A stretch of 64,000 bases of DNA from Myxococcota bacterium (GCA_050331295.1 JBHJGZ010000007.1:350422-414421); one strand, 5' to 3'; shown: positions 2,283 to 18,795, numbered from the stretch's first letter. The notes: a model not told the origin generated them from the sequence alone. Translations and numbers: made by a program.

Positions 2283-2296
2283 GGTGCACGTGCTCC

Positions 2297-3079: not shown

Positions 3080-3086
3080 GCGGCGT

Positions 3087-5372
3087 TCAGAGGACTTTGG
3101 TCACCACGTCGAACAATTCCTCGGCCGTGAACGGCTTGTGGAGGAGGGGCGTCTCGGGGTCCCATCCATGCCGCTCGAGCTCGGTGCCAGGATAGCCGGA
3201 TACGAAGAGCACCCGAAGCTCCGGATTCTTTTCCTTCAGACGGCTTGCCACGGCGGGCCCCGAGATCTCCGGCATCACGACATCGGACACCAGGAGGTCG
3301 ATGGGGGTCACCGAAGCGGCGGAAATCGCTTCTTCGGCGGTGTGAACCAGCACGACGCGAAACGCCATGCGTTCCAGCATTCGCATCATGGTCTGACCCA
3401 CACCCAGATCGTCCTCCAGCACCATGATCGTTCGGCGGCGAAGCGAGGTGGGCGTAGTCGCGGTCGGAGGCAGGTCGCCGGTGGGATCTTGGTCGGTGCA
3501 CGGGAGCCAGATCCTGACCGTGGTCCCTCGTTCTGGCTGACTCTCGAGGTCCAGTGCCCCGCCGCTCTGGCGGATGATGGCGTACGATGTAGCAAGGCCC
3601 AATCCGGTTCCTTTGCCGGGTCCCTTGGTGGTGAAGAAAGGCTCGAATGCTCGTTCTACCGCCTCCGGAGCCATTCCCTGGCCATTGTCTTGGACCGTAA
3701 CCTGGCACCATCGTTCGTTCTCGCCTTGAGAAGGAAGGTGGGCCGGCGCAGATTCGGAAGAGCGCAGTTCGATCTTCACGTTCCCTCCGTCCGGCATCGC
3801 ATCACGCGCGTTGATGAGCAGGTTCATGAGAACCTGATCGAACTGGCGCGGATCGACGACCACCGTGATGGGACCCGGCTCGACGCTGATGTCCATCTTG
3901 ACCCGTTCCCCCAACATCCGACGCCACAGCGGAGCCGATTCCGCGATCAAGCCACCGATGTCGGTACGTCGCCGATGTCCCTCTTGCCTCCGGGCGACGG
4001 TGAGAAGCCGCTGCGTCATGGCTCGACCCCGTTCGGCCGCAAGAAGAATCTCGTCGACCAGTTCGTCGATCACCGAAAGCTCGTGCTCTCCTTTGAGAAG
4101 TTCGCCGCTACCAAGAATGGTCGTCAGAAGATTGTTGAAATCGTGAGCCACTCCCCCGGCCAAGCGACCAAGGCTTTCCAGGCGTTGCGCATGCTGAGCA
4201 GTTTCTCGCTCGACCCGCTGCTGCGTCACATCCTGGATCACGCCATAGAGCCGATGCTGGGAGATACTGAGTTCGTCCCGGTAGAGCCAAAGCCGCATGA
4301 AACGAGGACGTCTGGTGTCATTGCCCAACCTGGCTTCGAACTCCCACTCTCGGCGGCTGCCTTCGAACACTCGTTGAAACCCCTCGCTCACCTTCGATCG
4401 GTCCGCTGGGTCGAACATGTCCAGGAACTGCTCGATGGCGACGTCACCCCCGAGGTCAATGTTCAACACCGCCGCGGCCTGACTGGAGAGTTCGACCGTC
4501 TTATCGTCGTGAATGTAGGTGAAGCCGCCTATCTCCGCGACCTGTGCGCTGAGCTCTAGCGAACGCACGAAGCGCTCCCGACGCTCTTCTGGAGTCACAT
4601 CCCATCCTTCGACCATCATCATCGGACGCTCTTCTGAAAACGGTCGAAGCAAACAGCATGAAATCCACATTGCGGTGGGCTCCGTTTGAGACCGAAGCTT
4701 GAACTGCAGTGACGTCTGTTCCTGATGCTTCGCGCCCTTGACCGCTGCCTTCATGAGCTCCACGTCGTCTGGCTCGATGGACCACGCGTCCTGGGACCAG
4801 AGCGGTTCACCAATTCGATGACTAAAGGTTCGGCGCGCAACTTGATTGGCCTCGACGACGCACCCGTCCTCGTCGAGGATCCAAAAACAAACCGACGCGG
4901 CCCGGAAGGCACCGAGAAACATGTGGTGACGGCGACTGAGCGCCTCTTCCGTCGATTTCCTTTCGTCGATGTCCATGTGAATCGTGGTCCAGGTCATCGT
5001 GCCATCCGAGAGGCGTAGCGGTGCTCCCGTTCCCTCTAGCCAGTGGATCGATCCATCGAAGTGACGAACGCGATATTCACATCGCCAAACCGAATGATTG
5101 TGAGCCGACGACCGGAGGGTCTCTCGGAGGCGCGCACCGTCTTCCTCGAGGACGTTGGGTAGCACCGGGTCGTTCCGGGGAAGACGTTCTTCCGCTTCCA
5201 TCCCGACAATGCGGATGACGTTCGGACCCCAGTATGGAACTTCAAAGGCTCCGTCGGCAGTAAGTGAGATCCGCTGCACGAATCCCGGGAAACTCACCGG
5301 CAATTCCGAAAAACCGTCAGAAGCAGAGATACCGGCGTTCTCATCGGCTTCCGACGACCCCGGCCCGCTCAT
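3087..5372 (-). CDS. PAS-domain hybrid sensor histidine kinase with C-terminal receiver domain
   Basis: PAS repeats, HisKA H-box (GGVAHDFNNLLTTILG), HATPase_c G-boxes (DNGQGM, GTGLGL) and a REC domain (VLEDD...DVVMP). ATG at 5372 (MSGPG) lies 10 nt after the coxE stop; the longer ORF-track start at 5507 would overlap coxE. Confidence 0.85.
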   Translation of the reverse strand: MSGPGSSEADENAGISASDGFSELPVSFPGFVQRISLTADGAFEVPYWGPNVIRIVGMEAEERLPRNDPVLPNVLEEDGARLRETLRSSAHNHSVWRCEYRVRHFDGSIHWLEGTGAPLRLSDGTMTWTTIHMDIDERKSTEEALSRRHHMFLGAFRAASVCFWILDEDGCVVEANQVARRTFSHRIGEPLWSQDAWSIEPDDVELMKAAVKGAKHQEQTSLQFKLRSQTEPTAMWISCCLLRPFSEERPMMMVEGWDVTPEERRERFVRSLELSAQVAEIGGFTYIHDDKTVELSSQAAAVLNIDLGGDVAIEQFLDMFDPADRSKVSEGFQRVFEGSRREWEFEARLGNDTRRPRFMRLWLYRDELSISQHRLYGVIQDVTQQRVERETAQHAQRLESLGRLAGGVAHDFNNLLTTILGSGELLKGEHELSVIDELVDEILLAAERGRAMTQRLLTVARRQEGHRRRTDIGGLIAESAPLWRRMLGERVKMDISVEPGPITVVVDPRQFDQVLMNLLINARDAMPDGGNVKIELRSSESAPAHLPSQGENERWCQVTVQDNGQGMAPEAVERAFEPFFTTKGPGKGTGLGLATSYAIIRQSGGALDLESQPERGTTVRIWLPCTDQDPTGDLPPTATTPTSLRRRTIMVLEDDLGVGQTMMRMLERMAFRVVLVHTAEEAISAASVTPIDLLVSDVVMPEISGPAVASRLKEKNPELRVLFVSGYPGTELERHGWDPETPLLHKPFTAEELFDVVTKVL

Positions 5373-5382
5373 GTTGCGAACG

Positions 5383-6594
5383 TTAGTGAAACCGCCCCGG
5401 AAACGCAAAATGCTTGCCGTCCCGCTCCGCTCTCTCCCGATTCGGACGCGATAGCAGGCTCGCAAGTTGTTCAAGGCTTGCAAGGTCATGGACAGGACGA
5501 AAGTCATCTACGTGGGGCAAAATGGCGGCGACACCCCGAGCCTTAGGTTGAAACCCGGCGTAACGAAGCAGCGGGTTGAGCCAAACCAAGCGTCGGCAGG
5601 AACGTCGCAGGCGCGCCGTCTCCGCTCCCAGGTCAACCTCGGCGTCTCGGTCCAAACCGTCCGTGACCAACAAGACCCACGCCCCATGGGCCAAGACCCG
5701 ACGACGCCACACCCGGTTGAATTCCCGAAGGCAGCCCCCGATTCGCGTTCCACCCGACCAGTCGAGGACTTCCTGGCCAATGCGGGCCATGGCGGCGTCT
5801 GGATCGCGTTGCCGCAACCAACGCGTCACCGGAGTCAAACGTGTCCCGAAGAGGAATGTGTGCACTCGATCTCGGTCGTTGGTCACCCCGTGTATCAAAT
5901 GGAGAAACATTCGACTGTACCGCTCCATCGAACCGGAGATATCGCAGAGCACCACCAACGGTCGAGGGCGGGTTCGGGGAGTCTTCCGGCGGAGAACGAC
6001 CGCATCTCCTGCGGTTCGCAGGCTGGACTGCATGGTCTTTCTTGCGTCGATATCTTTTCCGTTTCGTCGTGGCATGGTGCGGCGAACCGGGTTCTCCGGG
6101 GTGACGCCCTTCATGCGACGCAAGGCCATTTTCACTCGTCTGAGCTCATCGCCGCTCAGCTGGTCGAAGTCCTTGTGTCGAAGGCTTTCGACGTTGGAAG
6201 CGGTCATCGCGGCATCGAAATCCAACGGGACATCCTGCTCTCGGGGTCGCGGCGGTTCTCGAGGACCTCGAAACGCTTCGTGGATGCGCGTTGCCCCGGG
6301 TTTTGCGAGATTGCGGGAGGAAACATCTTCGGCACGGGGCAGGAGCATCTCGAGGGAGGAGGAAAAGGAGGGATCCCTAAAGAATCGATCGAACGCTTCC
6401 TTGAAAAGGGCCCGCTCTTCCGATCGATGAACATAGACGGCGTGAAGTCCCCAGAAGAGCGTCTCACGGTCTTGGAGTCCCAGGCGTTCCGTCACCTGCA
6501 GAGCCAAGAGTTGGGCGTCGGGACCGGCGGAAAGCCCGAGCCGACGAAGTACCCGTCCAAAGGCCACGAGATTCTCGGTGAGGACGGTGGTCAC
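5383..6594 (-). CDS. coxE: CoxE-like VWA domain protein (Mo hydroxylase maturation)
   Basis: VWA MIDAS motif LCDISGSM; N-terminal region LTENLVAFGRVLRRLGL is typical of CoxE. Proposed GTG start at 6594 overlaps the upstream stop as GTGA; the ORF-track start at 6768 would overlap the ligase gene by 177 nt. Confidence 0.75.
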   Translation of the reverse strand: MTTVLTENLVAFGRVLRRLGLSAGPDAQLLALQVTERLGLQDRETLFWGLHAVYVHRSEERALFKEAFDRFFRDPSFSSSLEMLLPRAEDVSSRNLAKPGATRIHEAFRGPREPPRPREQDVPLDFDAAMTASNVESLRHKDFDQLSGDELRRVKMALRRMKGVTPENPVRRTMPRRNGKDIDARKTMQSSLRTAGDAVVLRRKTPRTRPRPLVVLCDISGSMERYSRMFLHLIHGVTNDRDRVHTFLFGTRLTPVTRWLRQRDPDAAMARIGQEVLDWSGGTRIGGCLREFNRVWRRRVLAHGAWVLLVTDGLDRDAEVDLGAETARLRRSCRRLVWLNPLLRYAGFQPKARGVAAILPHVDDFRPVHDLASLEQLASLLSRPNRERAERDGKHFAFPGRFH

Positions 6595-8252
6595 AGGCGA
6601 CCTTGCTCGTAGTCCTCGGCCAGTTTCACCCGCTGCAGTTTGCCGCTCGTGGTCTTGGGTATACTGGACACCGGCAAGACCAAGGACACACCGAATCCGG
6701 TTTGGGTTGTGACGACATGACGGATTTTCTGAGCCAGCGCTTCGAACGCTTCTGGACTCCTTCGCCATTGAACGAATACAGCCAGAACCTCTCGCTCCCC
6801 GTCTCGAAGCCCGACTGCGGCCACCTTGCCGATTTCTACTTCGTCCAGGCTCGACACCACGGTCTCGATATCATGTGGAAAGATGTTCTGGCCGTTGACG
6901 ATGGCCATTTCCTTACGACGACCGGCGACATGCAATTCCCCTCGATGTAGAAATCCCAGATCTCCCGTGTCGTACCAGCCGTCCACCCGCGGATCGAAGT
7001 CTCCTTCCTCGGTCCGAACACTGGAGGTGACGTTGAGCCCACGAATCCAGATCGGTCCCACGACACCGTCCTCGACCGGCTGCGGTCGGTCCGAACCATC
7101 GCCGATCCGCACTTCGGTATGCCGGATCGGTCGACCACATGGCACGATGTCCAATCGGTCCTGGTCACTGTCCGGATCTCGTACCGGATCACCGAGTCCG
7201 AGACGGGTTCGGTCCACCGATGTCTTTCGGAGTCCGGAGCCGAGCGGCGGCATGGTCACGGCCAGGCTCGCCTCCGCTAGGCCGTACACTGGAAACATCG
7301 CGTCGGGATTCAGTCCGTGAACCGCGAAAGTGTCCAAGAATCGTTTCACCAATGCATAGGAAATCGGCTCCGCGCCGTTGAAGATCACTCGAACAGGAGA
7401 CAGATCAAGACCTTCGAAACGCTCTCGTTTGTACGCTCGCAAGGTATGTTGATAAGCGAAGTTCGGGCCGCTGGTGACCGTAACCCGATGAGCAGCCGCC
7501 TCCTGAAGCCACGTTAAGGGCCGGCGAACGAAACGTTCGGTGGGCATCAAAGTGTGGTTCGTTCCTCGCATGAACGGAGTAAGATGCCCGCCAATCAGGC
7601 CCATGTCATGGGTGAGCGGCATCCATGCATGCGGTCGGTCGTCCGGTTCGAGCTGGATCGCCTCGATGATCGCGGTCGTGTTGGCGACCAGATTTCGATG
7701 CGTCAGCTTTATGCCTTTCGGTAAGCGCGTCGAGCCCGAGCTGAACTGAACGTAGGCAAGGTCGTCTGGTCGCACATCGTGATGAACACCGGATGGACCG
7801 TGCAACGAAGCTTCTCGGAGCTCGGCGACGGTCACGAGTCTGCTCTTCAGTCGAGACAGATCTCGTCCCGCTGATTCGCTCGAGGCGAACGCAGCGATTC
7901 GCTCCCAGCTTTGTTCATCCGTCACGAAGAAGGGGTCCTCGAAGAGACCGAGCACCCGCCAAACTTTTCGCTGATGCTCTTCTGTCGCCCCGGTGCTCAC
8001 CGGCACTGGAACCGCTCCGCCCAACAAGCACGCCCAAAAAAGCTCCAAGAAATCCTGTGGCGCACTCACATAGAAGCCGACGAAGTTTCCCGGTCGAACC
8101 CCTTGGCTCTGAAGGCGACCCAGACGTCGTGTCGCCCTGTCGAGCAACTCCTCGTAGGTCGTGAACACCGGGTTGGGTCCCGTCAGATACCCGATCCGAT
8201 GTTGGGGTCGGAGAGGATGCATCAGGGCATCCACCAGCGTCTCTGGTGTCAT
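6591..8252 (-). CDS. adenylate-forming enzyme (fatty acyl-AMP ligase / acyl-CoA synthetase superfamily)
   Basis: AMP-binding motifs FSSGSTRLPKG, YGLAEA, WYDTGDLG and C-terminal SGKLQR lysine; 553 aa; ATG start confirmed at 8252. Confidence 0.8.
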   Translation of the reverse strand: MTPETLVDALMHPLRPQHRIGYLTGPNPVFTTYEELLDRATRRLGRLQSQGVRPGNFVGFYVSAPQDFLELFWACLLGGAVPVPVSTGATEEHQRKVWRVLGLFEDPFFVTDEQSWERIAAFASSESAGRDLSRLKSRLVTVAELREASLHGPSGVHHDVRPDDLAYVQFSSGSTRLPKGIKLTHRNLVANTTAIIEAIQLEPDDRPHAWMPLTHDMGLIGGHLTPFMRGTNHTLMPTERFVRRPLTWLQEAAAHRVTVTSGPNFAYQHTLRAYKRERFEGLDLSPVRVIFNGAEPISYALVKRFLDTFAVHGLNPDAMFPVYGLAEASLAVTMPPLGSGLRKTSVDRTRLGLGDPVRDPDSDQDRLDIVPCGRPIRHTEVRIGDGSDRPQPVEDGVVGPIWIRGLNVTSSVRTEEGDFDPRVDGWYDTGDLGFLHRGELHVAGRRKEMAIVNGQNIFPHDIETVVSSLDEVEIGKVAAVGLRDGEREVLAVFVQWRRSPEAFEALAQKIRHVVTTQTGFGVSLVLPVSSIPKTTSGKLQRVKLAEDYEQGRL

Positions 8253-8295
8253 CGCAGCGGACCAGGCGCATGTGAGGCGAGCCGGGAGTCAAGTC

Positions 8296-9168
8296 CTACA
8301 TCGGCTCCAGAAGGCCCGCGATGCCCTCGGCCCGGAGTCTTTCGATGTCTTCCCGCACCTTCAGCACCACGCCCAAGGTCTGGTCCACGAGTTCCGGTGA
8401 CAGGCGATGTTCCCGCAGAGCCAAGATCGCGCGTGTCCAGTCCAAAGACTCGGCGACCCCCGGAACCTTGAAGAGGTCCTTGGCCCGCAGCCTTTGAACG
8501 AATGCCACCACCGATCGGGCCAATTGTTCATCGACGGCCGGATATCGGGCGCGCACGATGGCCAGTTCCCGATCCAGGTCCGGGTAGTCCACCCAGTGGT
8601 ACAGGCATCGGCGCTTGAGTGCATCATGGATCTCGCGGGTTCGGTTCGAGGTGATCACGACGACCGGGGGCCGGTCGGCCCGGATGGTCCCGATTTCGGG
8701 AATGCTGACCTGCGCGTCGGAAAGAACCTCCAGCAAGAACGCCTCGAAGGGCTCATCCGTGCGGTCCAGCTCGTCGATCAACAGAACCGGGGGCCCTTCG
8801 AGGTGAGGTTCCAACGCCTGAAGCAGGGGGCGCTTGATCAGGAACCGGTCCCCAAACACATCTGGCTCGACGCCTCGAGGTTCGGCCAGCCGGATCTCGA
8901 TCATCTGTCGAGGATAGTTCCATTCGTACACCGCGGAAGCGAGGTCGAGGCCCTCATAGCACTGAAGCCGGATCAGACGTCGACCGAGCTGCTCGGCCAG
9001 GACCTTGGCGACTTCCGTCTTTCCGACTCCGGCCTCGCCTTCCAGCAACAACGGCCTCTCCAGCTCAAAGGCCAGGTAGATCGCGGTGCACAGGTCCCTC
9101 CCAGCCACGTACTGCCCTCGCTGAAGGAGACGAGAGACCTCATCGACGTTTTGAAATGGAGCTCCCAA
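8296..9168 (-). CDS. coxD: CoxD-like MoxR-family AAA+ ATPase
   Basis: Walker A GEAGVGKT; MoxR/CoxD-like N-terminus; 290 aa; start codon is TTG at 9168. Confidence 0.85.
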   Translation of the reverse strand: MGAPFQNVDEVSRLLQRGQYVAGRDLCTAIYLAFELERPLLLEGEAGVGKTEVAKVLAEQLGRRLIRLQCYEGLDLASAVYEWNYPRQMIEIRLAEPRGVEPDVFGDRFLIKRPLLQALEPHLEGPPVLLIDELDRTDEPFEAFLLEVLSDAQVSIPEIGTIRADRPPVVVITSNRTREIHDALKRRCLYHWVDYPDLDRELAIVRARYPAVDEQLARSVVAFVQRLRAKDLFKVPGVAESLDWTRAILALREHRLSPELVDQTLGVVLKVREDIERLRAEGIAGLLEPM

Positions 9169-9186
9169 CGGTCTGACGCCAGGGAA

Positions 9187-9978
9187 TCAGGCGGCAGCGA
9201 CCGCACGGGCCGCCATGACCTTCACCAAGTGGGCGCGGTAATCGGGCCCGGCATCGAGTTCGTCCAAGAAGTCGGTCGGGTCGACCTCGATGGAGGCCAA
9301 CGCTTCGGGTGCAAAATTTTTGGAAAGGGCTCGCTCCATGTCCGTCAGGCGGAACACTTTCGGACCGGCCCCCGTCACTGCGACGCGAACCTCATCTCCC
9401 CAGGTCGCCACCATCACCCCCACGATGGCATACTTGGACGCGGGATTGGGGAACTTCGCATAAGCCGCCCGGTCGACCGCCCGAAAGTGAACTGCCGTGA
9501 TGATCTCGTCTCTTTCGAGAGCCGTCTCGAACAGGCCGGTGAAGAACGCGTCAGCGTCGATTGTGCGTTGGTCCGTCTCCACCCGTCCATCCAAGGCCAC
9601 CACCGCCGCTGGATAGTCGGCTTGCGGGTCGGCATGGGCAATCGAGCCCCCCAACGTCCCCCGATTTCGGACCTGGGCGTCCCCGATGCCGTGCGCCAAC
9701 TTCGCCAGCGCCGGAAGACTCTGTCGGATCAGGCGGGAGGTTTCCACCTCGGCATGGGTGACGCTGGCGCCTACCACCACCCGGCCGTCCCGGACCTCGA
9801 TGCCTTTCAGCTCACGCAGTCCCTTCAAGCAGATCAAGTCGCTTGGCGCGGCTAGGTCCAGCTTCATGACGGGGATCAGGCTCTGGCCCCCACCCAGGAA
9901 CTTCCCGTCCACGCGAGCCGCCAGCAATGCTTTCGCTTCTTCCACCGTCGAGGGTCGATGAAACTCGAACGATTCCAT
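9187..9978 (-). CDS. coxM: Mo-hydroxylase FAD-binding medium subunit (CoxM/CutM-like)
   Basis: FAD-binding PCMH domain with the characteristic (F/L)LGGGQSL(I/L) motif (KFLGGGQSLIP), which it shares with CoxM and XdhB-type subunits; 263 aa. Confidence 0.9.
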   Translation of the reverse strand: MESFEFHRPSTVEEAKALLAARVDGKFLGGGQSLIPVMKLDLAAPSDLICLKGLRELKGIEVRDGRVVVGASVTHAEVETSRLIRQSLPALAKLAHGIGDAQVRNRGTLGGSIAHADPQADYPAAVVALDGRVETDQRTIDADAFFTGLFETALERDEIITAVHFRAVDRAAYAKFPNPASKYAIVGVMVATWGDEVRVAVTGAGPKVFRLTDMERALSKNFAPEALASIEVDPTDFLDELDAGPDYRAHLVKVMAARAVAAA

Positions 9979-9988
9979 CCGCTATCTC

Positions 9989-12361
9989 CTATCCATCTCG
10001 TTTCGCGGTCTGGATGGCCTTCCAGACTCTCTGCGGCGTGGCCGGCATGTCGAGGTCCTTCACCCCCAAGGGTGCCAGCGCATCCAAAACGGCATTGATC
10101 ACCGCCGGCGGGCTCCCGATCGCCCCCGCTTCACCACAGCCCTTGGACCCCAAAGGATTGTGGGTGCACGGCGTCACGTGGTTTCCGGTCTTGAAGAAAG
10201 GAAGGTCGGCCGCCCGCGGCATGCAGTAGTTCATATAGCTGGCCGTGAGAAGCTGTCCCGTCTCATCGTAGGTGCAGGCTTCGTAGAGGGCCTGACCAAT
10301 GCCCTGCGCCAGACCTCCTTGAATCTGTCCGTCGACGATCAACGGATTGATGACCCGTCCCACGTCATCTGCCGCCGCCATGTCGATCAGCTGCACGACG
10401 CCGGTGTCGGGGTCCACTTCCACCTCCGCAATGTGGCATCCGCCAGGAAACGTGAAGTTCTTCGGGTCATAGAAGGAACTCTCTTCCAGGCCGGGCTCAA
10501 GCTCCTCGAGCGGGTAGTTGTGAGGAACATACGCGGAGAACGCAACCTCTGCGAAGGCCTTCTTGCGGTCCGTACCCTTCACCGCAAAATGTCCGTCCGA
10601 GAATTCGATGTCACCCGCATCGGCCTCCAGCAGATGTGCTGCAATCTTCTTTCCCTTCTCGATCACTTTCTCGGTGGCCTTCGCGATGGCGGAACCTCCG
10701 ACCGGCAGCGAACGCGAGCCATACGTCCCCATTCCGAAGGCGGTGTTCGCGGTATCGCCGTGGACGAGTTCCACGGACTCGAACGAGATCCCAAGTTTGT
10801 CCGCCACGATTTGTGCGAAAGCGGTCTCATGCCCCTGGCCGTGACTATGAGTGCCGGTGAAGACGGTCACGGAGCCAGTGGGATGAACTCGAATCGTCGC
10901 TGATTCGTACAGTCCGGCGCGAGCGCCCAGGGCACCTGCCAAGGCGGACGGCGCGAGTCCGCAGGCCTCGATATACGTCGACAAGCCGAGTCCCCGCAGC
11001 TTGCCAGCCTTCTTCGAAGCTTCTCGTCGTTTCTCGAAGTTGGCGTAATCGATCTTTTCCAGCGCGAGATCCAACGTCGCCTCGAAGTTTCCGATATCGT
11101 ATTCGAGGGCTACCGGTGTCTGATAAGGAAAGTCGCTCTCCTTGATCATGTTCTTTCGTCGAAGTTCGACCCGGTCGAATCCACATTCCCGCGCCGCCTT
11201 TTCCACCAGCCGCTCGAGTAGGTACGTCGCTTCCGGACGACCTGCCCCGCGGTAGGCATCGACCGGAGCCGTGTTCGTGAAAAAGGCCTGCACTTCGCAA
11301 TAGATGGCGGGAGTCTTGTAAACTCCAGCCAAGAGCGTAGCGTACAGATACGTGGGAACGGCCGGAGCGAACGTGGAGAGATAGGCTCCCATGTTGGCTT
11401 TGGTCTGAACCCGCAGTCCCAAGAAGTTTCCGTCAGCATCCAACGCAAGCTCGGCGTGGGACCGATGATCGCGGCCGTGCGCATCGGTTTGAAACGATTC
11501 CGTCCGCTCGGCCGTCCATTTGACCGGACGTCCCAATCTCTTGGACGCCCAGGTCACCACCGCCTCCTCGGCATAGTGGTAGATCTTCGAACCAAACCCA
11601 CCCCCGACATCGGGAGCCACGACGCGAAGTTTATGTTCGGGCAGATTGAGGACGAAAGCACCCATCAAGAGGCGGATCAGATGGGGATTCTGAGTTGTCG
11701 TATAGAGGGTATGATGGTCGGAGGACGCGTCGTACTCTCCGATGCAGCTCCGCGGCTCGATGGCATTCGGCACCACTCGGTTGTTGATCAGATCGATGGC
11801 TACGACGTGCGTAGCCTTCGAAAAGGCTGCATCGGTCGCCGCCTTGTCCCCCAACTCGAAGTCGTAGCACTGATTGCCCGGGGCCAGTTCCCAAACCAAG
11901 GGCGCATTGGGAGCGACCGCCTGTTCGAGATTCGCAACGACGGGTAGGTCCTCGTATTCCACGGCCACCGCTTTCGCGGCGGACTTCGCCTGGGCTTGAG
12001 TTTCGGCCACGACAACCGCGATCTGATCTCCGACGTGCCGGACGACGCCGTCGGCGAGGGGGGGGTGCGGCGGCTCCTTCATGGGGGAACCGTCGCGACT
12101 GTGGATCTGCCATCCGGTCGGGATGCTTCCCACCCCGTCCGCCTTCATGTGTTCGCCGGTGAGGACCGCAAGAACACCCGGTAGCTTCTCCGCATCGGAC
12201 GCGTCGACCTTCACTCGGGCGTGGGCCATCTGCGACCGAACGAAACATGCATAGGCCTGGAATGGCCGAACCATGTCATCGGTGTATTGGCCTTTGCCGG
12301 TGAGAAACCGCGTGTCCTCCTTGCGAGTGACTCGATCGCCGATCCGTCCCGCGAGTGTCAT
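9989..12361 (-). CDS. coxL: aerobic-type CO dehydrogenase-like Mo-hydroxylase large subunit, form II (AYRGAGR motif)
   Basis: Ald_Xan_dh_C/C2 domains; active-site loop [14 protein letters not shown] at 12361 ([16 protein letters not shown]) sits 2 nt after the coxS stop; the 119-codon upstream extension of the ORF is rejected. Confidence 0.9.
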
Positions 12362-12363
12362 GT

Positions 12364-12843
12364 CTACTTTGCCTCCTTCATGCTCTGAGCCGCGGCCTGC
12401 ACCGCCTTCACGATGCCGTGATATCCAGTACACCGGCAAATGTTGCCTTCGAGCCACTCGCGAATGTCGCCTTCGCTCGGTGCCGCATTGTGCTGCAGAA
12501 GGTCGAGGGCACTCATCACCATACCCGGAGTGCAATAACCGCACTGTAGGCCATGATGTTCTTTGAATGCAGCCTGAATCGGATGAAGCTCGCCATTCGA
12601 AACACCTTCGATGGTGGTGACATCGGCTCCGTCCGCTTCTACGGCCAACATGCTGCACGCCTTCACTGATCGGCCGTCCACCATCACTGTGCAGGCGCCG
12701 CACTGGCTCGTATCGCAACCGACGTGAGTGCCGGTGAGACGAAGCCGTTCCCTCAAGAGTTCAACCAGCAGCGTTTGGGACTCGACCTGGACCTCGACTC
12801 CCTTTCCGTTCACGTTCATTTGAATCGAATGCATCTTGTTCAC
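12364..12843 (-). CDS. coxS: (2Fe-2S)-binding small subunit of Mo-hydroxylase (CoxS-like)
   Basis: Plant-type ferredoxin motif [11 protein letters not shown] and second cluster motif CGYCTPG...CRCTGY; 159 aa. Confidence 0.95.
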
Positions 12844-13057: not shown

Positions 13058-14332
13058 GTGCGTCGCGCATTCACATTGGCCGCCCTCATCATGGCGGGCG
13101 AGTCCATCTACACGCTGCCCTACGCCCTTCGTCGGGACTTCGCTCCAGTGATCCTGGAGGTCAGCGAGATGTCGTCGACCGAGCTCGGGCAGCTCAGCTC
13201 GATCTTCGGAGTGTTCGCGCTCCTCTGCTACTTCCCTGGAGGGTGGATCGCAGACCGCTTTCCCGCCCGCTCCTTGATGACCTTCTCGTTGCTCAGCACC
13301 GGCGCCCTCGGTCTGGGACTGGCCACACTTCCGAGTTTTTGGGGCATGCTGATGCTGTTCGCGGCCCTTGGTATCACCACCATCCTCACGTTCTGGGCTG
13401 CGCTCATCAAGGCCACGCGTGCTTGGGGCGGCGCCACCCAGCAAGGACTGGCCTTCGGTCTCCTGGACGGAGGCCGCGGGGTCGTCGACGCCCTCTTGGC
13501 TTCGACTGCGGTACTCACCTTTTCCCTAGTCGGAGGGGACGCAGCGGGCCTTAGGGGTGTCATCCTGCTGATGGCGTCGAGTTCGACGATGGCCGGCATC
13601 TGGGTCTGGTTTGCGGTTCGGGACGATCGGAGTGTCGAATCTTCCGCTCCCGGTGGAGCCATGCCCTCTCAACTCTTGGCGGTCGTTCGAATGCCCATCA
13701 CGTGGCTTCAAGCGGTCATCATCGTCGTGAGCTTTTCCTGTTTCTGGGGCACTTTCGACCTCTCGTCCTACGCGGTGGACAGCTTCGGGTGGTCCTCCGC
13801 GTCAGCCGCGTCTCTGTCGGCCGCAACACGATGGCTCCGTCCCATTGCCGCCCTCGGGGCCGGACTTCTGGCCGATCGAACGTCGGCCACTCGCGCCATC
13901 GTGGTCTGCTTCGTGAGTCTCATCGTCTCATACGGAGCGTTCGCGACGGTTCCGAGCATCCAAGGTCCGGTGTGGATTCTTTGGGCCAATGCATCCGCGG
14001 TTTGTCTCTTCAGCTTCGCGCTTCGAGGCGTGTACTACGCCATCATGGAGGAAGCCGATGTTCCGGTCCATCTGACCGGAACCACCGTTGGCGTCGTTTC
14101 CGTACTGGGCTTCACACCCGACATCTTCGTTCCGTTGATCCTCGGCTCCCTCGTCGACGGCTATCCAGGAGGACAAGGGCACCGACTCTTCTTCGCCGGT
14201 CTCTCCGCTCTTTGCTGCGTGGGATTGGCGGCAGCGGTGTTCGCGGCGCGCCTGACCGCGAGAAGCCGGACTTCGGCCTCCACGGCTTTGGACACCGGTC
14301 GGCCTACCGAAGCGGTTCGACGCCCTTCCTGA
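13058..14332 (+). CDS. MFS transporter
   Basis: Twelve predicted hydrophobic segments and MFS-like loop motif (GGWIADRFPARS); 424 aa. Confidence 0.7.
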   Translation: MRRAFTLAALIMAGESIYTLPYALRRDFAPVILEVSEMSSTELGQLSSIFGVFALLCYFPGGWIADRFPARSLMTFSLLSTGALGLGLATLPSFWGMLMLFAALGITTILTFWAALIKATRAWGGATQQGLAFGLLDGGRGVVDALLASTAVLTFSLVGGDAAGLRGVILLMASSSTMAGIWVWFAVRDDRSVESSAPGGAMPSQLLAVVRMPITWLQAVIIVVSFSCFWGTFDLSSYAVDSFGWSSASAASLSAATRWLRPIAALGAGLLADRTSATRAIVVCFVSLIVSYGAFATVPSIQGPVWILWANASAVCLFSFALRGVYYAIMEEADVPVHLTGTTVGVVSVLGFTPDIFVPLILGSLVDGYPGGQGHRLFFAGLSALCCVGLAAAVFAARLTARSRTSASTALDTGRPTEAVRRPS

Positions 14333-15947
14333 GATCCGCCCAGGTGTCGGGTGTGTCGATATCGACATGGACGCCACCATCCCGAACCTCGATGCGCTCC
14401 ACCTCATCTCGATGTCGAGCGATCAAGCCCCGAGCCCCTTCGTCGCCCGTGACCTGTTCAAGCTCCCCGAAGAACTTCCGGCTCCACAGCACCGGATGCC
14501 CTCGCTTTCTTCCATGGGTCGGCACGCGAATGGACCCCGGCCCGTGGGGCTTGAAGTCTTCCAAGAGCGTCCGCACGTGTTCTTCACTCACGAACGGCAT
14601 GTCTCCGAGGAACACCATGACACCGTCGACTTCGGTCGGAAGTGCGCGGATGCCGGTCCGCAAGGACGTACTCATGCCCTCACCGTACCGTTCATTGTGA
14701 ACGAAGTGGCAAGGGAGACCTCGCAACGCGGCCTTCACTTCCTGATGCTCGTGTCCGGTGACCACGACCACTGGGTCAAGGCCCGCCCTGACCGCCGCTT
14801 CCACTGGATGGCGCACCATGGGCTGACCTTTCACGTTCAGCAGCAGTTTATTGCGGCCACCCATCCTCGACGAACGTCCGGCAGCCAAGATCACCGCCGA
14901 CACCGCGACCGGCGCGCTCGATTCGGCGTCGGCGTTGCCGTACTGAGAACGAGGTGTCGGACGAAGCTCCACCTCGTGCAACAGGCCCCCGACTCCCAAG
15001 CCCATCAAGTCCTGGCCCGTCACCGGGACACCGGCCGCGATGCGCCAGAGGACCCAATCGAAGCCCGACGGCTTCGAGGACCGCGCACACCCCGGCAGCC
15101 CGAGGACCGGTATGTCGAGCTTCGAACCGGCCCGTGCCAAGAGGATCAGATTTCCCGGGTCGACCGGCATTCCAAAATGATCGACACGACCTCCGGCGTG
15201 TTCCACCGCGGACGGCAATACATCTTGCCGGTCACAAATCGCCGAGGCGCCGAGAATGAGAACCAGATCGGTAGCCAGCCCGTCTCGTATCGCGCGCGCC
15301 ACCGCCTCCGGCTCGTGCTCCACCACGACCGTCCGATCGATCTCTCCGCCCAAGAATGCCAACCGGGCTCGCTGGACGTCCTCGGTCCTTTGAAGAAGGC
15401 GCGTGGAAGTGTGGTCGAATGCGGTCAATATCAGGCGCGCCCGGAGTGGGAGAAAAGGACGAACCGAAACCAAGGCTTCCCTCGCGGCCAAGGAGCGACG
15501 GACATCGGACACCACCGCCATCGGTAGCGCGAAAGGAATGATCTTGAGGGTGGCGACCATCTCCCGGGCCTCCACCGGTCGAAACGAGGCGAGCGTGGAA
15601 AGGGCCACCGCCTCGTGGGTTCGATTGAAGTCGTCGACGCCGGAACTATCGACGGTCAGCAAGCCGCGATGTTCGGCGAAGAAGTTGATGCGCCCGGTTC
15701 GCGCCGGACCGCTTCGAACCCCAGGGCCCTCTACCCAAGAACGCAGCTGCTCGGCTGCGTCGTCTTCATGAATGTCATCGGCCTCGAGCCGCACTACGGT
15801 CAGTTCTCGAACTCCTGCCCGGACCAACGACGCCAACTCCGCTGCATTCAGGCGATGGCCTTTTGGGAGGCTGATCCCGGAAACCTTCAGTTTGTGAGCC
15901 AGCAAACAAGCCTCTGCCTCCTGGACGGGAAGGTTCGAGAGCTTCAT
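14304..15947 (-). CDS. molybdopterin-binding (MoCF_biosynth-like) domain fused to MobA/MocA-like molybdenum cofactor nucleotidyltransferase
   Basis: C-terminal NTP_transf_3 motifs (VILAAGRSSRMG...NKLL, DMPFV); N-terminal MoeA/CinA-like molybdopterin-binding domain. ATG at 15947 forms an ATGA overlap with the xdhC stop; the upstream ORF extension is rejected. Confidence 0.75.
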   Translation of the reverse strand: MKLSNLPVQEAEACLLAHKLKVSGISLPKGHRLNAAELASLVRAGVRELTVVRLEADDIHEDDAAEQLRSWVEGPGVRSGPARTGRINFFAEHRGLLTVDSSGVDDFNRTHEAVALSTLASFRPVEAREMVATLKIIPFALPMAVVSDVRRSLAAREALVSVRPFLPLRARLILTAFDHTSTRLLQRTEDVQRARLAFLGGEIDRTVVVEHEPEAVARAIRDGLATDLVLILGASAICDRQDVLPSAVEHAGGRVDHFGMPVDPGNLILLARAGSKLDIPVLGLPGCARSSKPSGFDWVLWRIAAGVPVTGQDLMGLGVGGLLHEVELRPTPRSQYGNADAESSAPVAVSAVILAAGRSSRMGGRNKLLLNVKGQPMVRHPVEAAVRAGLDPVVVVTGHEHQEVKAALRGLPCHFVHNERYGEGMSTSLRTGIRALPTEVDGVMVFLGDMPFVSEEHVRTLLEDFKPHGPGSIRVPTHGRKRGHPVLWSRKFFGELEQVTGDEGARGLIARHRDEVERIEVRDGGVHVDIDTPDTWADLRKGVEPLR

Positions 15948-16681
15948 TTCCGTGCACTCCCGCCGCGCAAGACACTGACCATTTCCGCCAGCGCAGACAG
16001 CGCGACCTCTGCGGGTGCACGTCCGCCCAATGCGAGACCCAGCGGCCCGTGAAGCCGGTCCAACGCCGCTTCGTCGAAGCCCTGCTTTGCCAAACGGCGT
16101 CGGCGTGCCGCATGGGTCTTCGAGGAGCCGAGACAACCGATGTAAAAAGCGGGACTCTGAAGGGCAACTTCGAGGGCGGGGTCATCGAGTTTGGGGTCGT
16201 GGGTCAGCGTGATGACGGCGGAGCGGTGGTCGAGGGCAGCGGCTTCCAACGCTTCGTCGGGCCATGCTTCATCTATCAAAACCCCGGGAAAGCGCTCGGT
16301 CCGGCCGAACGAAGATCGTGGATCGATGACCGTGACCTCGAAGCCGAGGCCCTTCGCCATCGAGACCATGGCCTGCGCGATGTGCACCGCGCCCACGACA
16401 AAGAGGCGCAACGGTGGGTTGAAGGGCAGATAGAATACCCCGTCGATGGTGCTCGCACGGTCCCGCTCGAGGCACTCCCGTGCCCGTTCCTCCAGCTGGT
16501 CCTTGGGTGGGTTCGCCGTCATGCGATACAGCGCTTGCGTTCCGGTATCCAGTTCGGTGACCAGCACGACCGCTTCTTTGCGCGAGCGCGCGGCCAACAG
16601 AGTCTCCAAGAGCTCCCGCTTCACGTCACGGGCTCCAGCCAGATACGCACCGTACCGCCGCAAGCCAACCCGACCTCCCAA
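15944..16681 (-). CDS. xdhC: XdhC/CoxI-family Mo-cofactor insertion chaperone, C-terminal Rossmann-like domain ORF
   Basis: XdhC_C-like region (LFVVGAVHIAQAMVSMAKGLGFEVTVIDPR). It begins with TTG at 16681 in a different frame from the upstream N-domain ORF, with a 61-nt overlap; a possible ATG start is at 16522. Confidence 0.65.
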   Translation of the reverse strand: MGGRVGLRRYGAYLAGARDVKRELLETLLAARSRKEAVVLVTELDTGTQALYRMTANPPKDQLEERARECLERDRASTIDGVFYLPFNPPLRLFVVGAVHIAQAMVSMAKGLGFEVTVIDPRSSFGRTERFPGVLIDEAWPDEALEAAALDHRSAVITLTHDPKLDDPALEVALQSPAFYIGCLGSSKTHAARRRRLAKQGFDEAALDRLHGPLGLALGGRAPAEVALSALAEMVSVLRGGSARK

Positions 16682-16947
16682 GCCCGGTCATGACTGACCC
16701 CGAACTCGAGCTGCCGAGGTCGACCGGACTCCATGACATCCTTGGCCTCTTCCACCACTGCACCTTCGATGCACCCTCCGGACACCGAGCCTACGAACAA
16801 ACCGTCGTCTCGGATGGCTAGGTGACTTCCGGCGGGGCGAGGTGAAGAACCCCAGGTTTCGATGACGGTGGCGAGAGCAGTCCGATAGCCTTCGGTTCTC
16901 CATCGGTGGACGGCTTCGAGCGGGTCTACGTGCAGCTCGTCTTGCAT
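16621..16947 (-). CDS. xdhC: XdhC/CoxI-family N-terminal domain ORF
   Basis: XdhC_CoxI motif ALATVIETWGSSPRPAGSHLAI...GSVSGGCIEGAVV...GLACGG; stop at 16621-16623; ATG at 16947. Confidence 0.75.
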   Translation of the reverse strand: MQDELHVDPLEAVHRWRTEGYRTALATVIETWGSSPRPAGSHLAIRDDGLFVGSVSGGCIEGAVVEEAKDVMESGRPRQLEFGVSHDRAWEVGLACGGTVRIWLEPVT

Positions 16948-17032
16948 GCAATGACGCTAGTGCGGCTGCACGGGGCTGGCCAGGGGAGAGCGTCCGAAGC
17001 ACCGACCAAATGTTCCGTCGGCGGTTCATGGG
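16948..17032. promoter_or_regulatory. divergent intergenic region between xdhC (minus) and sufS (plus), presumed to carry both promoters
   Basis: 85-bp non-coding gap between divergently oriented starts; no motif verified. Confidence 0.25.
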
Positions 17033-18322
17033 GTGGATCCGCGACCCAATTCCACGCGGTGCGGCATACCCGAGCAGACCATTCGGGTTGACGAGGCCGG
17101 AGCATCGGCTCAGTTGGAAACAGTGGTACGGGACGAGTTCCCCGGTCTGGCCGTCGAATTCGATGGCCGACAGCTCGTGTATCTAGACAGCGCCAGCACC
17201 GCCCAGAAGCCGCGAGCGGTTCTGGATGCGGTGCAACGTGCATTGACACGAGCGGCAAACATACACCGAGGCGTGCATCGGCTGAGCGAGGAGAACACCC
17301 TCGCGTACGAAGGTGTGCGGGCCAAGGCAGCCCATGTCCTGGGGGTACGGGATCCGACGGAGATCGTCTTCACGAGAGGAACCACCGAAAGCATCAATCT
17401 CGTGGCACAGTCCTGGGCTCGCACCGAGCTGAGGTCGGGCGACCAGATCTTGCTGACCGAGCTGGAGCACCACAGCAACATCGTTCCTTGGCAATGGGTG
17501 GCGCGAAGCACCGGCGCCGAACTGGTGGTGGTTCCGGTCGAAGAGGACGGGAGCGTGCAGCTGGCCGCCTTCGAGGCACGTTTGAATCCCAACACTCGGC
17601 TGGTGGCCATCAGCCACGTCTCGAACGCACTTGGAACCGTCTTGGAGGTCGCGTCGATGGTGCGGAGCGCTCGAGCGGTCGGAGCCCTCACCCTGGTGGA
17701 TGGGGCGCAGGCAGTTCCCCACCTTCACATCGACCTCAACGACCTCGGCTGTGATTTCTACACCTTCTCTGGCCACAAGATGTACGGGCCCACCGGGGCG
17801 GGCGTCCTTTGGGCCCGGCGAGAGCTCCTCGAACGTATGCCTCCTTATCAGGGCGGCGGAGATATGATCGCGGAGGTTCGGTTCGAAGAAACGACATACA
17901 ATGCTGTGCCCCACAAGTTCGAGGCCGGAACCCCGGACATCGTCGCCGTCCTGGGACTCGGCGCCGCACTCGACTGGTGGACGGGCTTCGACCAGCAGAC
18001 GGTCCATGATCACGAAGAACGGGTCTACCGGTGCCTCGTGGAGAGCCTTCGAGACCTTCGTGGCATCCGCATGTTGGGCCCGGCGCCAAGTGCCGTGGGC
18101 GCGGTCTCCTTTCTGGTCGACGATCTTCATCCGCATGACGTGGGGACCGCCCTTGACGCCTACGGCATCGCCGTGCGGACCGGACACCACTGTGCACAGC
18201 CGCTCATGGAACGATTCGGGGTGGACGGGACGGTCCGCGCGAGCCTGGGGATCTACAATGACGAGGGGGACGTCGCGGCTCTGGTTTCCGCCCTCGAGCG
18301 TGTGCGACAGGTCCTGGCATGA
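17033..18322 (+). CDS. sufS: SufS-family cysteine desulfurase (class V aminotransferase)
   Basis: DSASTAQKP N-terminal motif, HK PLP-lysine motif (FSGHKMYGPTGAG) and active-site loop RTGHHCAQP; GTG start at 17033. Confidence 0.9.
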   Translation: MDPRPNSTRCGIPEQTIRVDEAGASAQLETVVRDEFPGLAVEFDGRQLVYLDSASTAQKPRAVLDAVQRALTRAANIHRGVHRLSEENTLAYEGVRAKAAHVLGVRDPTEIVFTRGTTESINLVAQSWARTELRSGDQILLTELEHHSNIVPWQWVARSTGAELVVVPVEEDGSVQLAAFEARLNPNTRLVAISHVSNALGTVLEVASMVRSARAVGALTLVDGAQAVPHLHIDLNDLGCDFYTFSGHKMYGPTGAGVLWARRELLERMPPYQGGGDMIAEVRFEETTYNAVPHKFEAGTPDIVAVLGLGAALDWWTGFDQQTVHDHEERVYRCLVESLRDLRGIRMLGPAPSAVGAVSFLVDDLHPHDVGTALDAYGIAVRTGHHCAQPLMERFGVDGTVRASLGIYNDEGDVAALVSALERVRQVLA

Positions 18323-18795
18323 GTGACGATCCTCAGTCGTCTTCGGCGCCTCGGTCCGTCGAAGCCTTGTACCAGGACGCCATCCTTTCCTGGGCGCGCG
18401 ACGGACGTCGCACCGGTCCCCTTCCCTCGCCTCCCCAAGACGGCGACCGGAAGACCCGCAAGGTCAATCCTTTGTGTGGAGACCGCTGCACGGTGTCGGT
18501 GCGCGGGAGCGCCGCGCGGCTCGAGATGGTCAGAACCGAGAGTCGAGGCTGTGCCATCAGCCTCGCGTCGGCGGCGCTCATGGCCGAACTGGTGGAGGGA
18601 TTGCCACCGAGTGAGGCCACAGCGCTTTTCGGAGCCCTGCGGGCCGGGCTCGAGGGCAGCACGGACGCCGCCCTACCCGAACCTCTGCGGCCGCTTCTGT
18701 CGGTGCGTCCCTTCCGGTCTCGGCACCGCTGCGCCTTGCTTCCGTGGGAAGCGCTGTCGGAGCTGATAGGTCTGGACACCTGGTCTTCGACCTAG
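18319..18795 (+). CDS. sufU: SufU/NifU-like Fe-S cluster assembly sulfur-transfer protein
   Basis: NPLCGD motif plus a downstream Cys (ESRGCAIS); 4-nt overlap with the sufS stop. Confidence 0.75.
   Translation: MSDDPQSSSAPRSVEALYQDAILSWARDGRRTGPLPSPPQDGDRKTRKVNPLCGDRCTVSVRGSAARLEMVRTESRGCAISLASAALMAELVEGLPPSEATALFGALRAGLEGSTDAALPEPLRPLLSVRPFRSRHRCALLPWEALSELIGLDTWSST

Follow-up and report, generated by a model that had tools for sequence, protein, structure and literature searches.

A probable form-II molybdenum hydroxylase cluster (coxS-coxL-coxM) from an uncultured Myxococcota bacterium, with a fatty acyl-AMP ligase-like gene between coxD and coxE

Which class of molybdenum (Mo) hydroxylase does a coxS-coxL-coxM cluster of an uncultured Myxococcota bacterium encode, what might the enzyme oxidise, and do the genes interleaved with it belong to the enzyme system? 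These questions are raised by positions 3087-12843 of a 64 kb stretch of DNA (GCA_050331295.1, JBHJGZ010000007.1:350422-414421), analysed over its full length of 64,000 nucleotides and termed here the window. All cluster genes lie on the minus strand in the order coxS-coxL-coxM-coxD-FAAL-coxE-hybrid kinase, where FAAL stands for a fatty acyl-AMP ligase-like gene, and every intergenic gap from coxS to the kinase gene is 43 nt or less. Pfam E-values across these genes range from 1e-9 to 1e-95, thus the domain assignments are not a matter of chance. The small-subunit gene coxS (12364..12843; Fer2_2 E=2.7e-35, Fer2 E=2.7e-9) accounts for two [2Fe-2S] clusters through eight cysteines in two canonical patterns (C40/45/48/60 and C98/101/133/135), and can start either at ATG 12834 (156 aa) or at GTG 12843 (159 aa). 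Two nucleotides past its stop, with GGAGG just 5′, lies the ATG of coxL (9989..12361), which encodes the molybdopterin-binding large subunit of 790 aa with Ald_Xan_dh_C, MoCoBD_1 and MoCoBD_2 matches. The FAD-binding medium subunit of 263 aa is encoded by coxM (9187..9978; FAD_binding_5 E=2.1e-46, and CO_deh_flav_C at E=3.5e-5, slightly under its cut-off), and is followed by coxD (8296..9168), a MoxR-type AAA+ ATPase of 290 aa from a TTG start with AAA and AAA_5 matches, Walker A GEAGVGKT and Walker B VLLIDE.

The initial annotation had placed the cluster among the form-II, CO dehydrogenase (CODH)-like Mo hydroxylases on account of its gene order and an AYRGAGR motif in place of the Cu-binding loop, and both features are indeed present. 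AYRGAGR occupies CoxL residues 369-375 (11237..11257, minus strand). In alignment with three form-I enzymes of known structure it stands opposite AYACSFR/AYRCSFR, with glycine at the position of the Cu-ligating cysteine, and the form-I loop is flanked by one additional residue on either side. The same alignment to form-I CoxL retains Gln and Glu at the active-site positions: Gln224 (TTQNPH; codon 11690..11692, minus strand) aligns to the Gln of FQAPH in 1n5w_B and Glu744 (GCGEAG; codon 10130..10132, minus strand) to the Glu of GVGES, and we take them to be the counterparts of the Mo=O-contacting Gln240 and the catalytic Glu763 of the Oligotropha carboxidovorans enzyme. Among the 120 closest CoxL homologues, the loop reads AYRGAGR in 75, AVRGAGR in 43 and ALRGAGR in two. 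AYRGAGR together with the coxSLM order is the published definition of form II (PMC13203968), and the motif is also described in PMC13240472.

Every discriminating test for form I turned out negative. CoxL scores under the trusted NCBIfam cut-offs of both TIGR02416 (677.7 vs. 991.15) and NF040766 (590.9 vs. 950), and the cluster proteins stay under the cut-off of every NCBIfam equivalog model. Its best solved relative is the form-I CODH of Mycobacterium smegmatis (8uem_A) at 41.7% identity, below the 55% that Cordero et al. use as the identity line for form-I CoxL (PMC6794299). In a neighbour-joining tree, distance-based only and without bootstrap, that took in four form-I sequences, quinoline 2-oxidoreductase (Qor) and NdhL, CoxL falls inside the AYRGAGR/S-L-M clade; form I is the sister group of this clade, and Qor and NdhL branch outside. 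A form-I Mo-Cu CODH was hence rejected on the glycine in place of the Cu-ligand cysteine, the S-L-M instead of M-S-L order and the TIGR02416 and NF040766 scores. Of the form-I accessory genes, coxD, coxE and an XdhC-type gene are present here and coxG is not (no homologue anywhere in the 64 kb window); they do not discriminate between forms I and II, since many form-II loci have such accessory genes too. We conclude that this is probably a typical form-II coxS-coxL-coxM Mo hydroxylase cluster, in which the FAAL and kinase genes are interleaved neighbourhood genes.

Could such an enzyme nevertheless be a genuine CODH, if a slow or low-affinity one, that oxidises CO without Cys-bound copper or with copper held otherwise, at a site built by CoxD and CoxE as in form I? 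The nearest relatives with solved structures belong to form I, which is also the sister group of the clade; moreover, coxD and coxE, which are required for the form-I cluster (PMC4240915), are kept in about half of form-II loci, and some strains with form II only are reported to oxidise CO, namely Foliimonas (PMC12582533) and Kyrpidia (PMC7248562). However, the Cu-ligating cysteine is missing from a loop one residue shorter on each side, and the Qor loop AYRGVGF aligns to it without a gap, indicating that AYRGAGR is a generic hydroxylase loop. Isolates with form II only often show no CO uptake (PMC13203968), recent work suggests that the physiological substrate is not CO (PMC6794299), and the TIGR02416 and NF040766 scores given above point the same way, so that we regard a CODH as unlikely.

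For the form-II enzyme that we prefer, a mechanism can be proposed from knowledge of the family. CoxL would bind a molybdopterin-cytosine-dinucleotide cofactor with a terminal sulfido ligand and would lack copper, because glycine replaces the Cu-binding cysteine. In substrate hydroxylation at Mo, Glu744 would serve as the base while Gln224 makes contact with the oxo group. Electrons would then flow via both [2Fe-2S] clusters in CoxS and next the FAD in CoxM into the respiratory chain. In form I, CoxD serves in sulfuration, and CoxE and the XdhC-like CoxF in Cu insertion (PMC4240915). Here, CoxD (AAA+) and CoxE (VWA) may carry out a late active-site step, probably sulfuration and not copper insertion.

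The earlier description of a full maturation module holds only when genes beyond the reported span are included. Divergent from coxS is an MFS transporter gene (13058..14332, plus strand; MFS_1), and across it on the minus strand lie a fusion of a MocA-type Mo cofactor cytidylyltransferase with an N-terminal molybdopterin-binding-like domain (14304..16136; NTP_transf_3 E=1.3e-46, MoCF_biosynth) and an XdhC/CoxF/CoxI-type chaperone (15944..16956; XdhC_CoxI E=1.2e-26, XdhC_C E=2.2e-40) that is split over two ORFs, one for the N-domain (16621..16947) and one for the Rossmann domain (15944..16681). Divergent from xdhC are a class-V cysteine desulfurase (17033-18322; Aminotran_5 E=9e-138) and a NifU_N-like scaffold protein (18262-18795; NifU_N E=5.8e-8), together spanning 17033..18795 on the plus strand. 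MocA would supply the cytosine dinucleotide cofactor, while the split XdhC with the neighbouring desulfurase and NifU-like protein may serve in cofactor sulfuration and insertion, the latter pair being the probable sulfur donor. The MocA fusion, which scores 173 bits against the 186-bit cut-off of TIGR03310, also occurs in related cox loci, and the split XdhC recurs in one of them (L081) as well as in Azospirillum lipoferum 4B and Microvirga ossetica. In locus L088, XdhC-desulfurase-NifU-MocA-CoxG-S-L-M-D-E runs on one strand, so that the desulfurase and NifU-like genes, flanked by xdhC and mocA, are there part of the cox operon.

The cluster had been thought of special interest as a complete example of its type, a view that we do not share. 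More than 100 database clusters with at least 69% CoxL identity are spread over several phyla, including Myxococcota, Acidobacteriota, Gemmatimonadota and Proteobacteria, and complete sets also occur in cultured bacteria such as A. lipoferum 4B and M. ossetica, which lend themselves far better to study than a MAG does. Of 80 related genome loci, 78 have the S-L-M order; coxD-coxE directly follows it in 27 of the 55 whose downstream flank reaches 3 kb or more, and in all but one of these 27 the aligned coxD and coxE segments are no more than 321 nt apart. CoxD itself shares 58-78% identity with its counterparts encoded after coxM in related loci. The cluster is thus an ordinary member of a very common form-II type, and its sole unusual point is the FAAL gene between the two maturation genes. 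The initial annotation, which correctly listed coxD and coxE, overlooked this gene and took the two to be tightly spaced. Insertions are also seen in other loci: in L006, coxD and coxE are separated by genes that look toxin-like on sequence inspection, and extra genes lie between coxM and coxD in L067 and A. lipoferum 4B, indicating that the operon tolerates inserted genes.

The FAAL-like gene (6591..8252, minus strand; AMP-binding E=1.3e-53) encodes 553 aa, starts 43 nt past the coxD stop, and its own stop overlaps the GTG start of coxE (GTGA). The product has intact adenylation motifs (SSGSTRLPKG, YGLAE and PKTTSGK), matches the fatty acyl-AMP ligase PRK09192 best among NCBIfam models (371 bits vs. 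a cut-off of 600), and in pairwise alignment carries within residues ~325-375 a FAAL-type segment of ~45 residues that is missing from an ordinary acyl-CoA ligase. No carrier domain is fused to it, nor did tblastn find a carrier homologue in the 64 kb window. Downstream lie coxE (5383..6594, minus strand; VWA_CoxE E=1.5e-67), a VWA-domain maturation protein of 403 aa with the MIDAS motif DISGS at residue 218, and, 10 nt after its stop, a cytoplasmic hybrid histidine kinase of 761 aa (3087..5372, minus strand; PAS_3, PAS, HisKA, HATPase_c and REC). The sensor kinase was thus rightly noted, but it is not a cox-specific feature, being found in none of the 80 related cox loci.

That said, what are the FAAL and kinase genes doing here? 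In two Myxococcota loci without cox genes (L084 and L085), the order ABC-MFS-MFS-FAAL-kinase-hydrolase-DNA ligase is found, and in L084 the kinase orthologue (47% identity) adjoins FAAL and lacks the first ~255 residues with their two PAS domains. Given this pairing in cox-less relatives, we read both genes as local backbone and not as cox components. The MFS transporter, with orthologues of 53-59% identity in L081, L084 and L085, is likewise part of a conserved local backbone. From such sequence comparison, FAAL and the kinase look like prior neighbourhood genes that were interleaved with cox genes by local rearrangement, rather than components of the enzyme system. Both run in the same direction as the cox genes and are probably transcribed together with them; the cox genes may have been gained around FAAL or else lost from L084 and L085.

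A functional tie is a less likely alternative. FAAL separates coxD from coxE in two lineages 15% apart in CoxL, and in the window it is translationally coupled to coxE: L081 retains the S-L-M-D-FAAL-E-kinase order with 85% CoxL and 75% FAAL identity. FAAL, and perhaps the kinase, an SDR and the hydrolase, would then be coupled to the Mo enzyme, in that a lipid-type aldehyde is oxidised to an acid and adenylated by FAAL, and the kinase senses the substrate or redox state through its two extra PAS domains. The GTGA overlap, the intact adenylation motifs, the PAS-bearing N-terminal extension of the kinase in cox-bearing loci and the SDR, which lies between kinase and hydrolase only in those loci, agree with such coupling, whereas FAAL and kinase orthologues stand side by side without cox genes in L084 and L085, an orthologous FAAL occurs in none of the 80 other form-II loci nor in L088 or L089, no carrier partner was detected in the window, and this FAAL type is scarce with only about ten database clusters. 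We therefore consider the coupling very improbable; if true, FAAL, the PAS-extended kinase and the SDR as working parts would offer the first hint at what a form-II enzyme acts on.

Form-II enzymes were described as having no established substrate, in agreement with the literature to mid-2026 (PMC13240472; PMC6794299). Our leading guess, tentatively held, is a small aldehyde and not CO, and it derives from sub-threshold HMM similarity and gene context, the latter in relatives of only 59-67% identity. The archaeal glyceraldehyde dehydrogenase/oxidoreductase models (NF041018-NF041020) are the best or near-best NCBIfam models for all three subunits, each close to but under the cut-off (NF041018, 671 vs. 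790; beta, 205.5 vs. 350; gamma, 231 vs. 290). As for context, coxSLM genes of 59% identity lie in PQQ alcohol-dehydrogenase islands of Phaeobacter, Pseudosulfitobacter and Sulfitobacter, the last with the run pedF-SBP-coxG-S-L-M, and in a single Longimicrobiales locus (L041) a PQQ dehydrogenase gene directly precedes coxS; none is present in the 64 kb window. By analogy, the Roseobacteraceae PQQ islands suggest that form-II CoxSLM enzymes in general might be aldehyde oxidoreductases acting downstream of alcohol dehydrogenases. Hydroxylation of an N-heterocycle or other aromatic compound, as by Qor, nicotine dehydrogenase or 6-hydroxypseudooxynicotine dehydrogenase, is quite unlikely, although CoxL strongly matches the structures of Qor (1t3q, E=2e-151) and Pno (7dqx, E=2e-135) and shares an AYRGxG loop with Qor. 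CoxL is ~42% identical to Qor and ~36% to NdhL, both outside its clade in the tree, and no recurrent catabolic pathway genes for such compounds lie beside the cluster. Furthermore, CoxL conservation of at least 69% across four phyla argues for a common housekeeping-type substrate and not a niche xenobiotic.

Among known systems, the form-I Mo-Cu CODHs of O. carboxidovorans (CoxMSL, 1n5w), Hydrogenophaga pseudoflava (CutMSL, 1ffu) and M. smegmatis (8uem) share the three-subunit architecture, cofactor domains, aligned Gln/Glu and coxD/coxE-type accessory genes, and differ in AYRCSFR with its Cu-ligand cysteine, the longer loop and the M-S-L order (M-S-L-G in a Deinococcus form-I locus); form-I CoxL is 40-45% identical to CoxL here. 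Qor has the same fold and subunit set, and lies outside the clade of forms I and II. The solved structure 4zoh from a Sulfolobus-type archaeon, related to the archaeal glyceraldehyde dehydrogenases, matches at E=1e-115, and this cluster is set apart from those dehydrogenases by its sub-cut-off scores, bacterial source and coxD/coxE accessory genes. FAAL-ACP didomain proteins are 42-48% identical to the FAAL-like protein over the full adenylation domain, and unlike it have a carrier (PP-binding) domain. The putative form-II ("BMS-type") clusters on plasmid AZO_p3 of A. lipoferum 4B (AZOLI_RS22080-22120) and on a plasmid of M. ossetica (BB934_RS35340-35400) differ in that here FAAL parts coxD from coxE, coxG is absent, and XdhC and MocA lie upstream across the divergent MFS gene instead of downstream. 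They are alike in AYRGAGR, the S-L-M order, a coxM followed by MoxR and VWA genes, and a split XdhC with a MocA-type gene nearby, at 61-69% CoxL identity.

Seven genes of interest lie within positions 3087-12843 of the window, all on the minus strand. The first three are coxS (12843 or 12834..12364), a small subunit with two [2Fe-2S] domains and eight cysteines in canonical spacing, coxL (12361..9989), a 790-aa large subunit with a hammerhead and two Moco-binding domains, and coxM (9978..9187), the FAD-binding subunit. They are followed by coxD (9168..8296), a MoxR-type AAA+ ATPase with Walker A GEAGVGKT and Walker B VLLIDE, then by a gene for a 553-aa AMP-binding, fatty-acyl-AMP-ligase-like enzyme (FAAL; 8252..6591), by coxE (6594..5383), a VWA_CoxE protein with the MIDAS motif DISGS, and by a hybrid kinase of PAS-PAS-HisKA-HATPase-REC architecture (5372..3087). 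Gene calls and domain matches agree with the initial annotation on the minus-strand S-L-M order, coxD, coxE and the kinase. It had also described coxD and coxE as tightly spaced, which is incorrect because the 1.66-kb AMP-binding gene, which it missed, separates the two. Adjacent genes are 2 nt (coxS/coxL), 10 nt (coxL/coxM), 18 nt (coxM/coxD), 43 nt (coxD/FAAL) and 10 nt (coxE/kinase) apart, with a 4-nt overlap (GTGA) between FAAL and coxE, and these short spacings make a single seven-gene transcription unit from coxS to the kinase plausible. Simple scans of 2200-13600, uninformative for such a high-GC genome, detected no promoter-like site, and terminator-like sites were as frequent as expected from shuffling. 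A second cox paralogue was not found in the window.

The FAAL protein holds every adenylation core motif and, relative to an ordinary acyl-CoA ligase, an extra segment; its best NCBIfam matches are fatty acyl-AMP ligases, under their cut-offs. Orthologues with at least 63% identity form only about ten database clusters, all without a carrier domain and, where the source is named, all from Myxococcota, and the next relatives (42-48% identity) are FAAL-ACP fusions. Searching the window by tblastn with the ACP tails of these fusions returned no significant match to a carrier protein. An AMP-binding gene adjoining coxE in the related cox locus L088 was considered as an orthologue and rejected at 24% identity.

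The order S-L-M-D-FAAL-E-kinase-SDR-hydrolase is kept in one sister lineage (L081; CoxL 85%, FAAL 75% identity). Two loci from more distant Myxococcota, L084 and L085 (FAAL 66-67%), read ABC transporter-MFS-MFS-FAAL-kinase-hydrolase-DNA ligase-ADH and hold no cox, xdhC, mocA or desulfurase genes; the FAAL gene of L084 is flanked by only 31 and 108 nt. Their ABC transporter, one MFS gene, FAAL, kinase, hydrolase and DNA ligase are all orthologous to window genes, and in the related cox locus L089 an orthologous DNA ligase (7722-9278) lies directly upstream of coxS. Judged from gene order, a conserved backbone is interleaved with the cox and maturation genes at three or four points, through either piecemeal loss of these genes from L084/L085 or rearrangement in the lineage of the window. 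In these Myxococcota loci, the ATP-dependent DNA ligase (61-1392 in the window, plus strand) keeps synteny with the cox/FAAL neighbourhood, which makes it useful as an anchor when the cox/FAAL rearrangements are reconstructed.

Since FAAL and the kinase are present in genomes without neighbouring cox genes and occur in none of 80 other form-II loci, we read both as passengers. Neither should be taken for a cox component, and this includes the kinase that the initial annotation had attached to the operon. Two observations qualify this reading: the overlap of the FAAL stop with the coxE start is real, and the kinases of the two cox-bearing loci are longer at the N terminus by about 255 residues, which include two PAS domains and are missing from the orthologues in cox-less loci (compared with L084:11737-13290). 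The FAAL insertion is the only unusual element of the cluster and is best explained by local genome rearrangement.

The "full maturation module" claimed for the operon is real only in part: coxD and coxE are in the reported span, the remainder lies upstream past a divergent MFS transporter gene, and coxG is absent, with no homologue in the 64-kb window. This remainder consists of a MocA-type cytidylyltransferase fused to a molybdopterin-binding-like domain (16136..14304, minus strand), an XdhC chaperone (16956..15944, minus strand) split into two overlapping ORFs for the N-domain (108 aa) and the Rossmann domain (239 aa), and a divergent class-V cysteine desulfurase with a NifU_N-like protein (17033-18795). 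Unlike the fused XdhC of L088, the split form recurs in L081, Azospirillum lipoferum 4B and Microvirga ossetica, and it is therefore a family trait and not a frameshift error. After the NifU-like gene come two large alpha-amylase-family genes (18815-23190, plus strand) of 883 aa and 575 aa. The second contains CBM_48 and DUF3459; the pair could encode TreY/TreZ-type enzymes of trehalose synthesis and seems to have no connection with the cox cluster. In O. carboxidovorans, CoxD is required to sulfurate the [MoO3] site, and copper insertion needs CoxE and the XdhC-like CoxF (PMC4240915). As the Cu-binding cysteine is missing from the window CoxL, the maturation set would here serve to give the cytosine dinucleotide cofactor a terminal sulfido ligand and to maintain that ligand.

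A complete form-II operon with its maturation genes had been put forward as something new to characterise; it turns out to be the common state of the family. The exact CoxL protein is already deposited at NCBI, named "xanthine dehydrogenase family protein" and assigned to a Myxococcota MAG. In the database search, all of the 8000 best-matching candidates scored had E <= 1e-50, and the best 120 clusters, 69-100% identical to CoxL, come from Myxococcota, Acidobacteriota and Proteobacteria. A genome scan with one genome per species yielded 587 confirmed loci, and among the best 80 of these, which we examined, 78 have the S-L-M order. Where at least 3 kb follow coxM (55 loci), coxD and coxE lie directly downstream in 27, coxD only in 3 and neither in 25, the last mostly from Acetobacteraceae and relatives. 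In all but one of the 27 loci with both genes (26), no more than 321 nt separate the aligned coxD and coxE segments. The exception is a Holophagales MAG (L006:14100-16000), where about 2.5 kb lie between the two genes. On inspection, this gap carries small genes resembling toxin-antitoxin modules, namely a MazF/PemK-like toxin ORF and, with a small partner upstream, a PIN-domain-like ORF; it is a further example of foreign genes being tolerated between coxD and coxE. Between coxM and coxD, an alphaproteobacterial locus has an extra 208-aa ORF of uncertain family (L067:13193-13819) and an Azospirillum locus a DUF4160/DUF2442 pair (L096:15279-15795); a "TIGR02466 family protein" is annotated within a Deinococcus form-I cluster (L091).

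A compact version on one strand, XdhC-cysteine desulfurase-NifU-MocA-CoxG-CoxS-L-M-D-E, is found in L088 (74% CoxL identity), and the same gene set occurs in the cultured A. lipoferum 4B (67%, split XdhC included) and M. ossetica (61%). ORF clustering over the 80 loci, noisy from high-GC antisense ORFs, showed only cox accessory genes (coxD, coxE, coxG, XdhC, MocA) to recur widely and gave no general substrate-specific neighbour; by inspection, an Acetobacteraceae subgroup also repeatedly has Dpp/Opp-type ABC transporter genes and a D-amino-acid-oxidase-like flavoprotein. The window cluster is real and correctly classified, and belongs, as an ordinary member, to a family that is very large and already recognised.

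Form II is defined in print by motif and gene order (PMC13203968; PMC12582533), and the window cluster matches on both, so that the form-II assignment of the initial annotation was correct and amounts to a textbook description of a known, widespread class. CoxL scores below the cut-offs of the form-I equivalog TIGR02416 (677.7 bits against 991), of NF040766 (590.9 against 950) and of the archaeal glyceraldehyde dehydrogenase alpha subunit (671 against 790) in NCBIfam; the best matches of CoxS and CoxM are glyceraldehyde dehydrogenase models, again under cut-off. Its 41.7% identity to M. smegmatis CoxL is under the 55% at which Cordero et al. divide form I from form II (PMC6794299). In a neighbour-joining tree of four form-I sequences, Qor, pAO1 NdhL, cultured S-L-M representatives and thirteen close homologues, the window CoxL falls inside an AYRGAGR clade that is sister to form I, with Qor outside, and not in a clade of known specificity.

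In the form-I active-site motifs, a Gln and a Glu occupy the positions that align with Gln224 (TTQNPH) and Glu744 (GCGEAG) of the window CoxL, and we take these two residues to be the counterparts of Gln240 and Glu763 in the O. carboxidovorans enzyme. Measured against the 118 other closest homologues, CoxL deviates from their 90% consensus at only 14 positions, among them T223 beside Gln224 and C742 beside Glu744, both common to the 85% relative. Near the active site, S223T, V742C and V750S depart from the clade consensus in the window and this relative, and T223 and S750 are the form-I state. A clade-specific active-site change with altered function was considered and set aside, since 14 deviating positions are too little to argue for it.

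The activity of form II is called unresolved in the literature to June 2026 (PMC13240472): isolates with form II only often show no CO uptake (PMC13203968), and a few such strains consume CO (PMC12582533; PMC7248562). We commit to reading the window enzyme as a hydroxylase that works without copper, depends on a sulfido ligand and has something other than CO as its physiological substrate. Two weak, independent lines make a small aldehyde the leading candidate. The first is that all three subunits come near the threshold of archaeal glyceraldehyde dehydrogenase models. The second is that 59%-identical coxSLM genes sit in an island with a PQQ-dependent dehydrogenase of the methanol/ethanol family, pqqABCDE and cytochrome c-550 pedF in Roseobacteraceae, namely Phaeobacter gallaeciensis pP73_a (L092/L094), Pseudosulfitobacter pseudonitzschiae P2 (L095) and a Sulfitobacter pontiacus plasmid (L097), the last with pedF, a binding protein, coxG, coxS, coxL and coxM contiguous on one strand. 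In one Longimicrobiales MAG, a PQQ dehydrogenase (L041:7752-9326) lies directly upstream of coxS. This context suggests an aldehyde-oxidising role; our literature search found no published link of form-II cox with PQQ/ped/xox clusters. The window holds no PQQ dehydrogenase, so for its enzyme the aldehyde lead is drawn from relatives. The residual novel reading, in which FAAL and the kinase work together with the Mo enzyme or form-II enzymes as a class are aldehyde oxidoreductases, is very unlikely for this locus.

The true substrate of form II has been an open question since the mid-2000s, and its CoxL is regularly miscounted as a marker of CO oxidation in metagenomes. With an uncultured MAG as its source and equivalents in cultured bacteria, the window locus offers no easier way to test the question; the one transferable lead, orthologous coxSLM in Roseobacteraceae PQQ alcohol-dehydrogenase operons pointing to aldehydes, is testable in culture. 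The value of the locus is mainly negative, in that the annotation it calls for is Cu-free xanthine-oxidase-family hydroxylase, not CO dehydrogenase. The VAYRCSFR Cu-binding loop is absent from its CoxL: in HMMER alignments, AYRGAGR (residues 369-375) aligns with the AYACSFR/AYRCSFR of three solved form-I structures, 8uem from M. smegmatis, 1ffu from H. pseudoflava and 1n5w from O. carboxidovorans, and as sequence matches these are already unambiguous. The form-I loop carries the Cu-ligating Cys where the window CoxL has Gly, and is longer by one residue on either side, whereas the AYRGVGF loop of quinoline 2-oxidoreductase (1t3q) aligns with that of the window CoxL without a gap.
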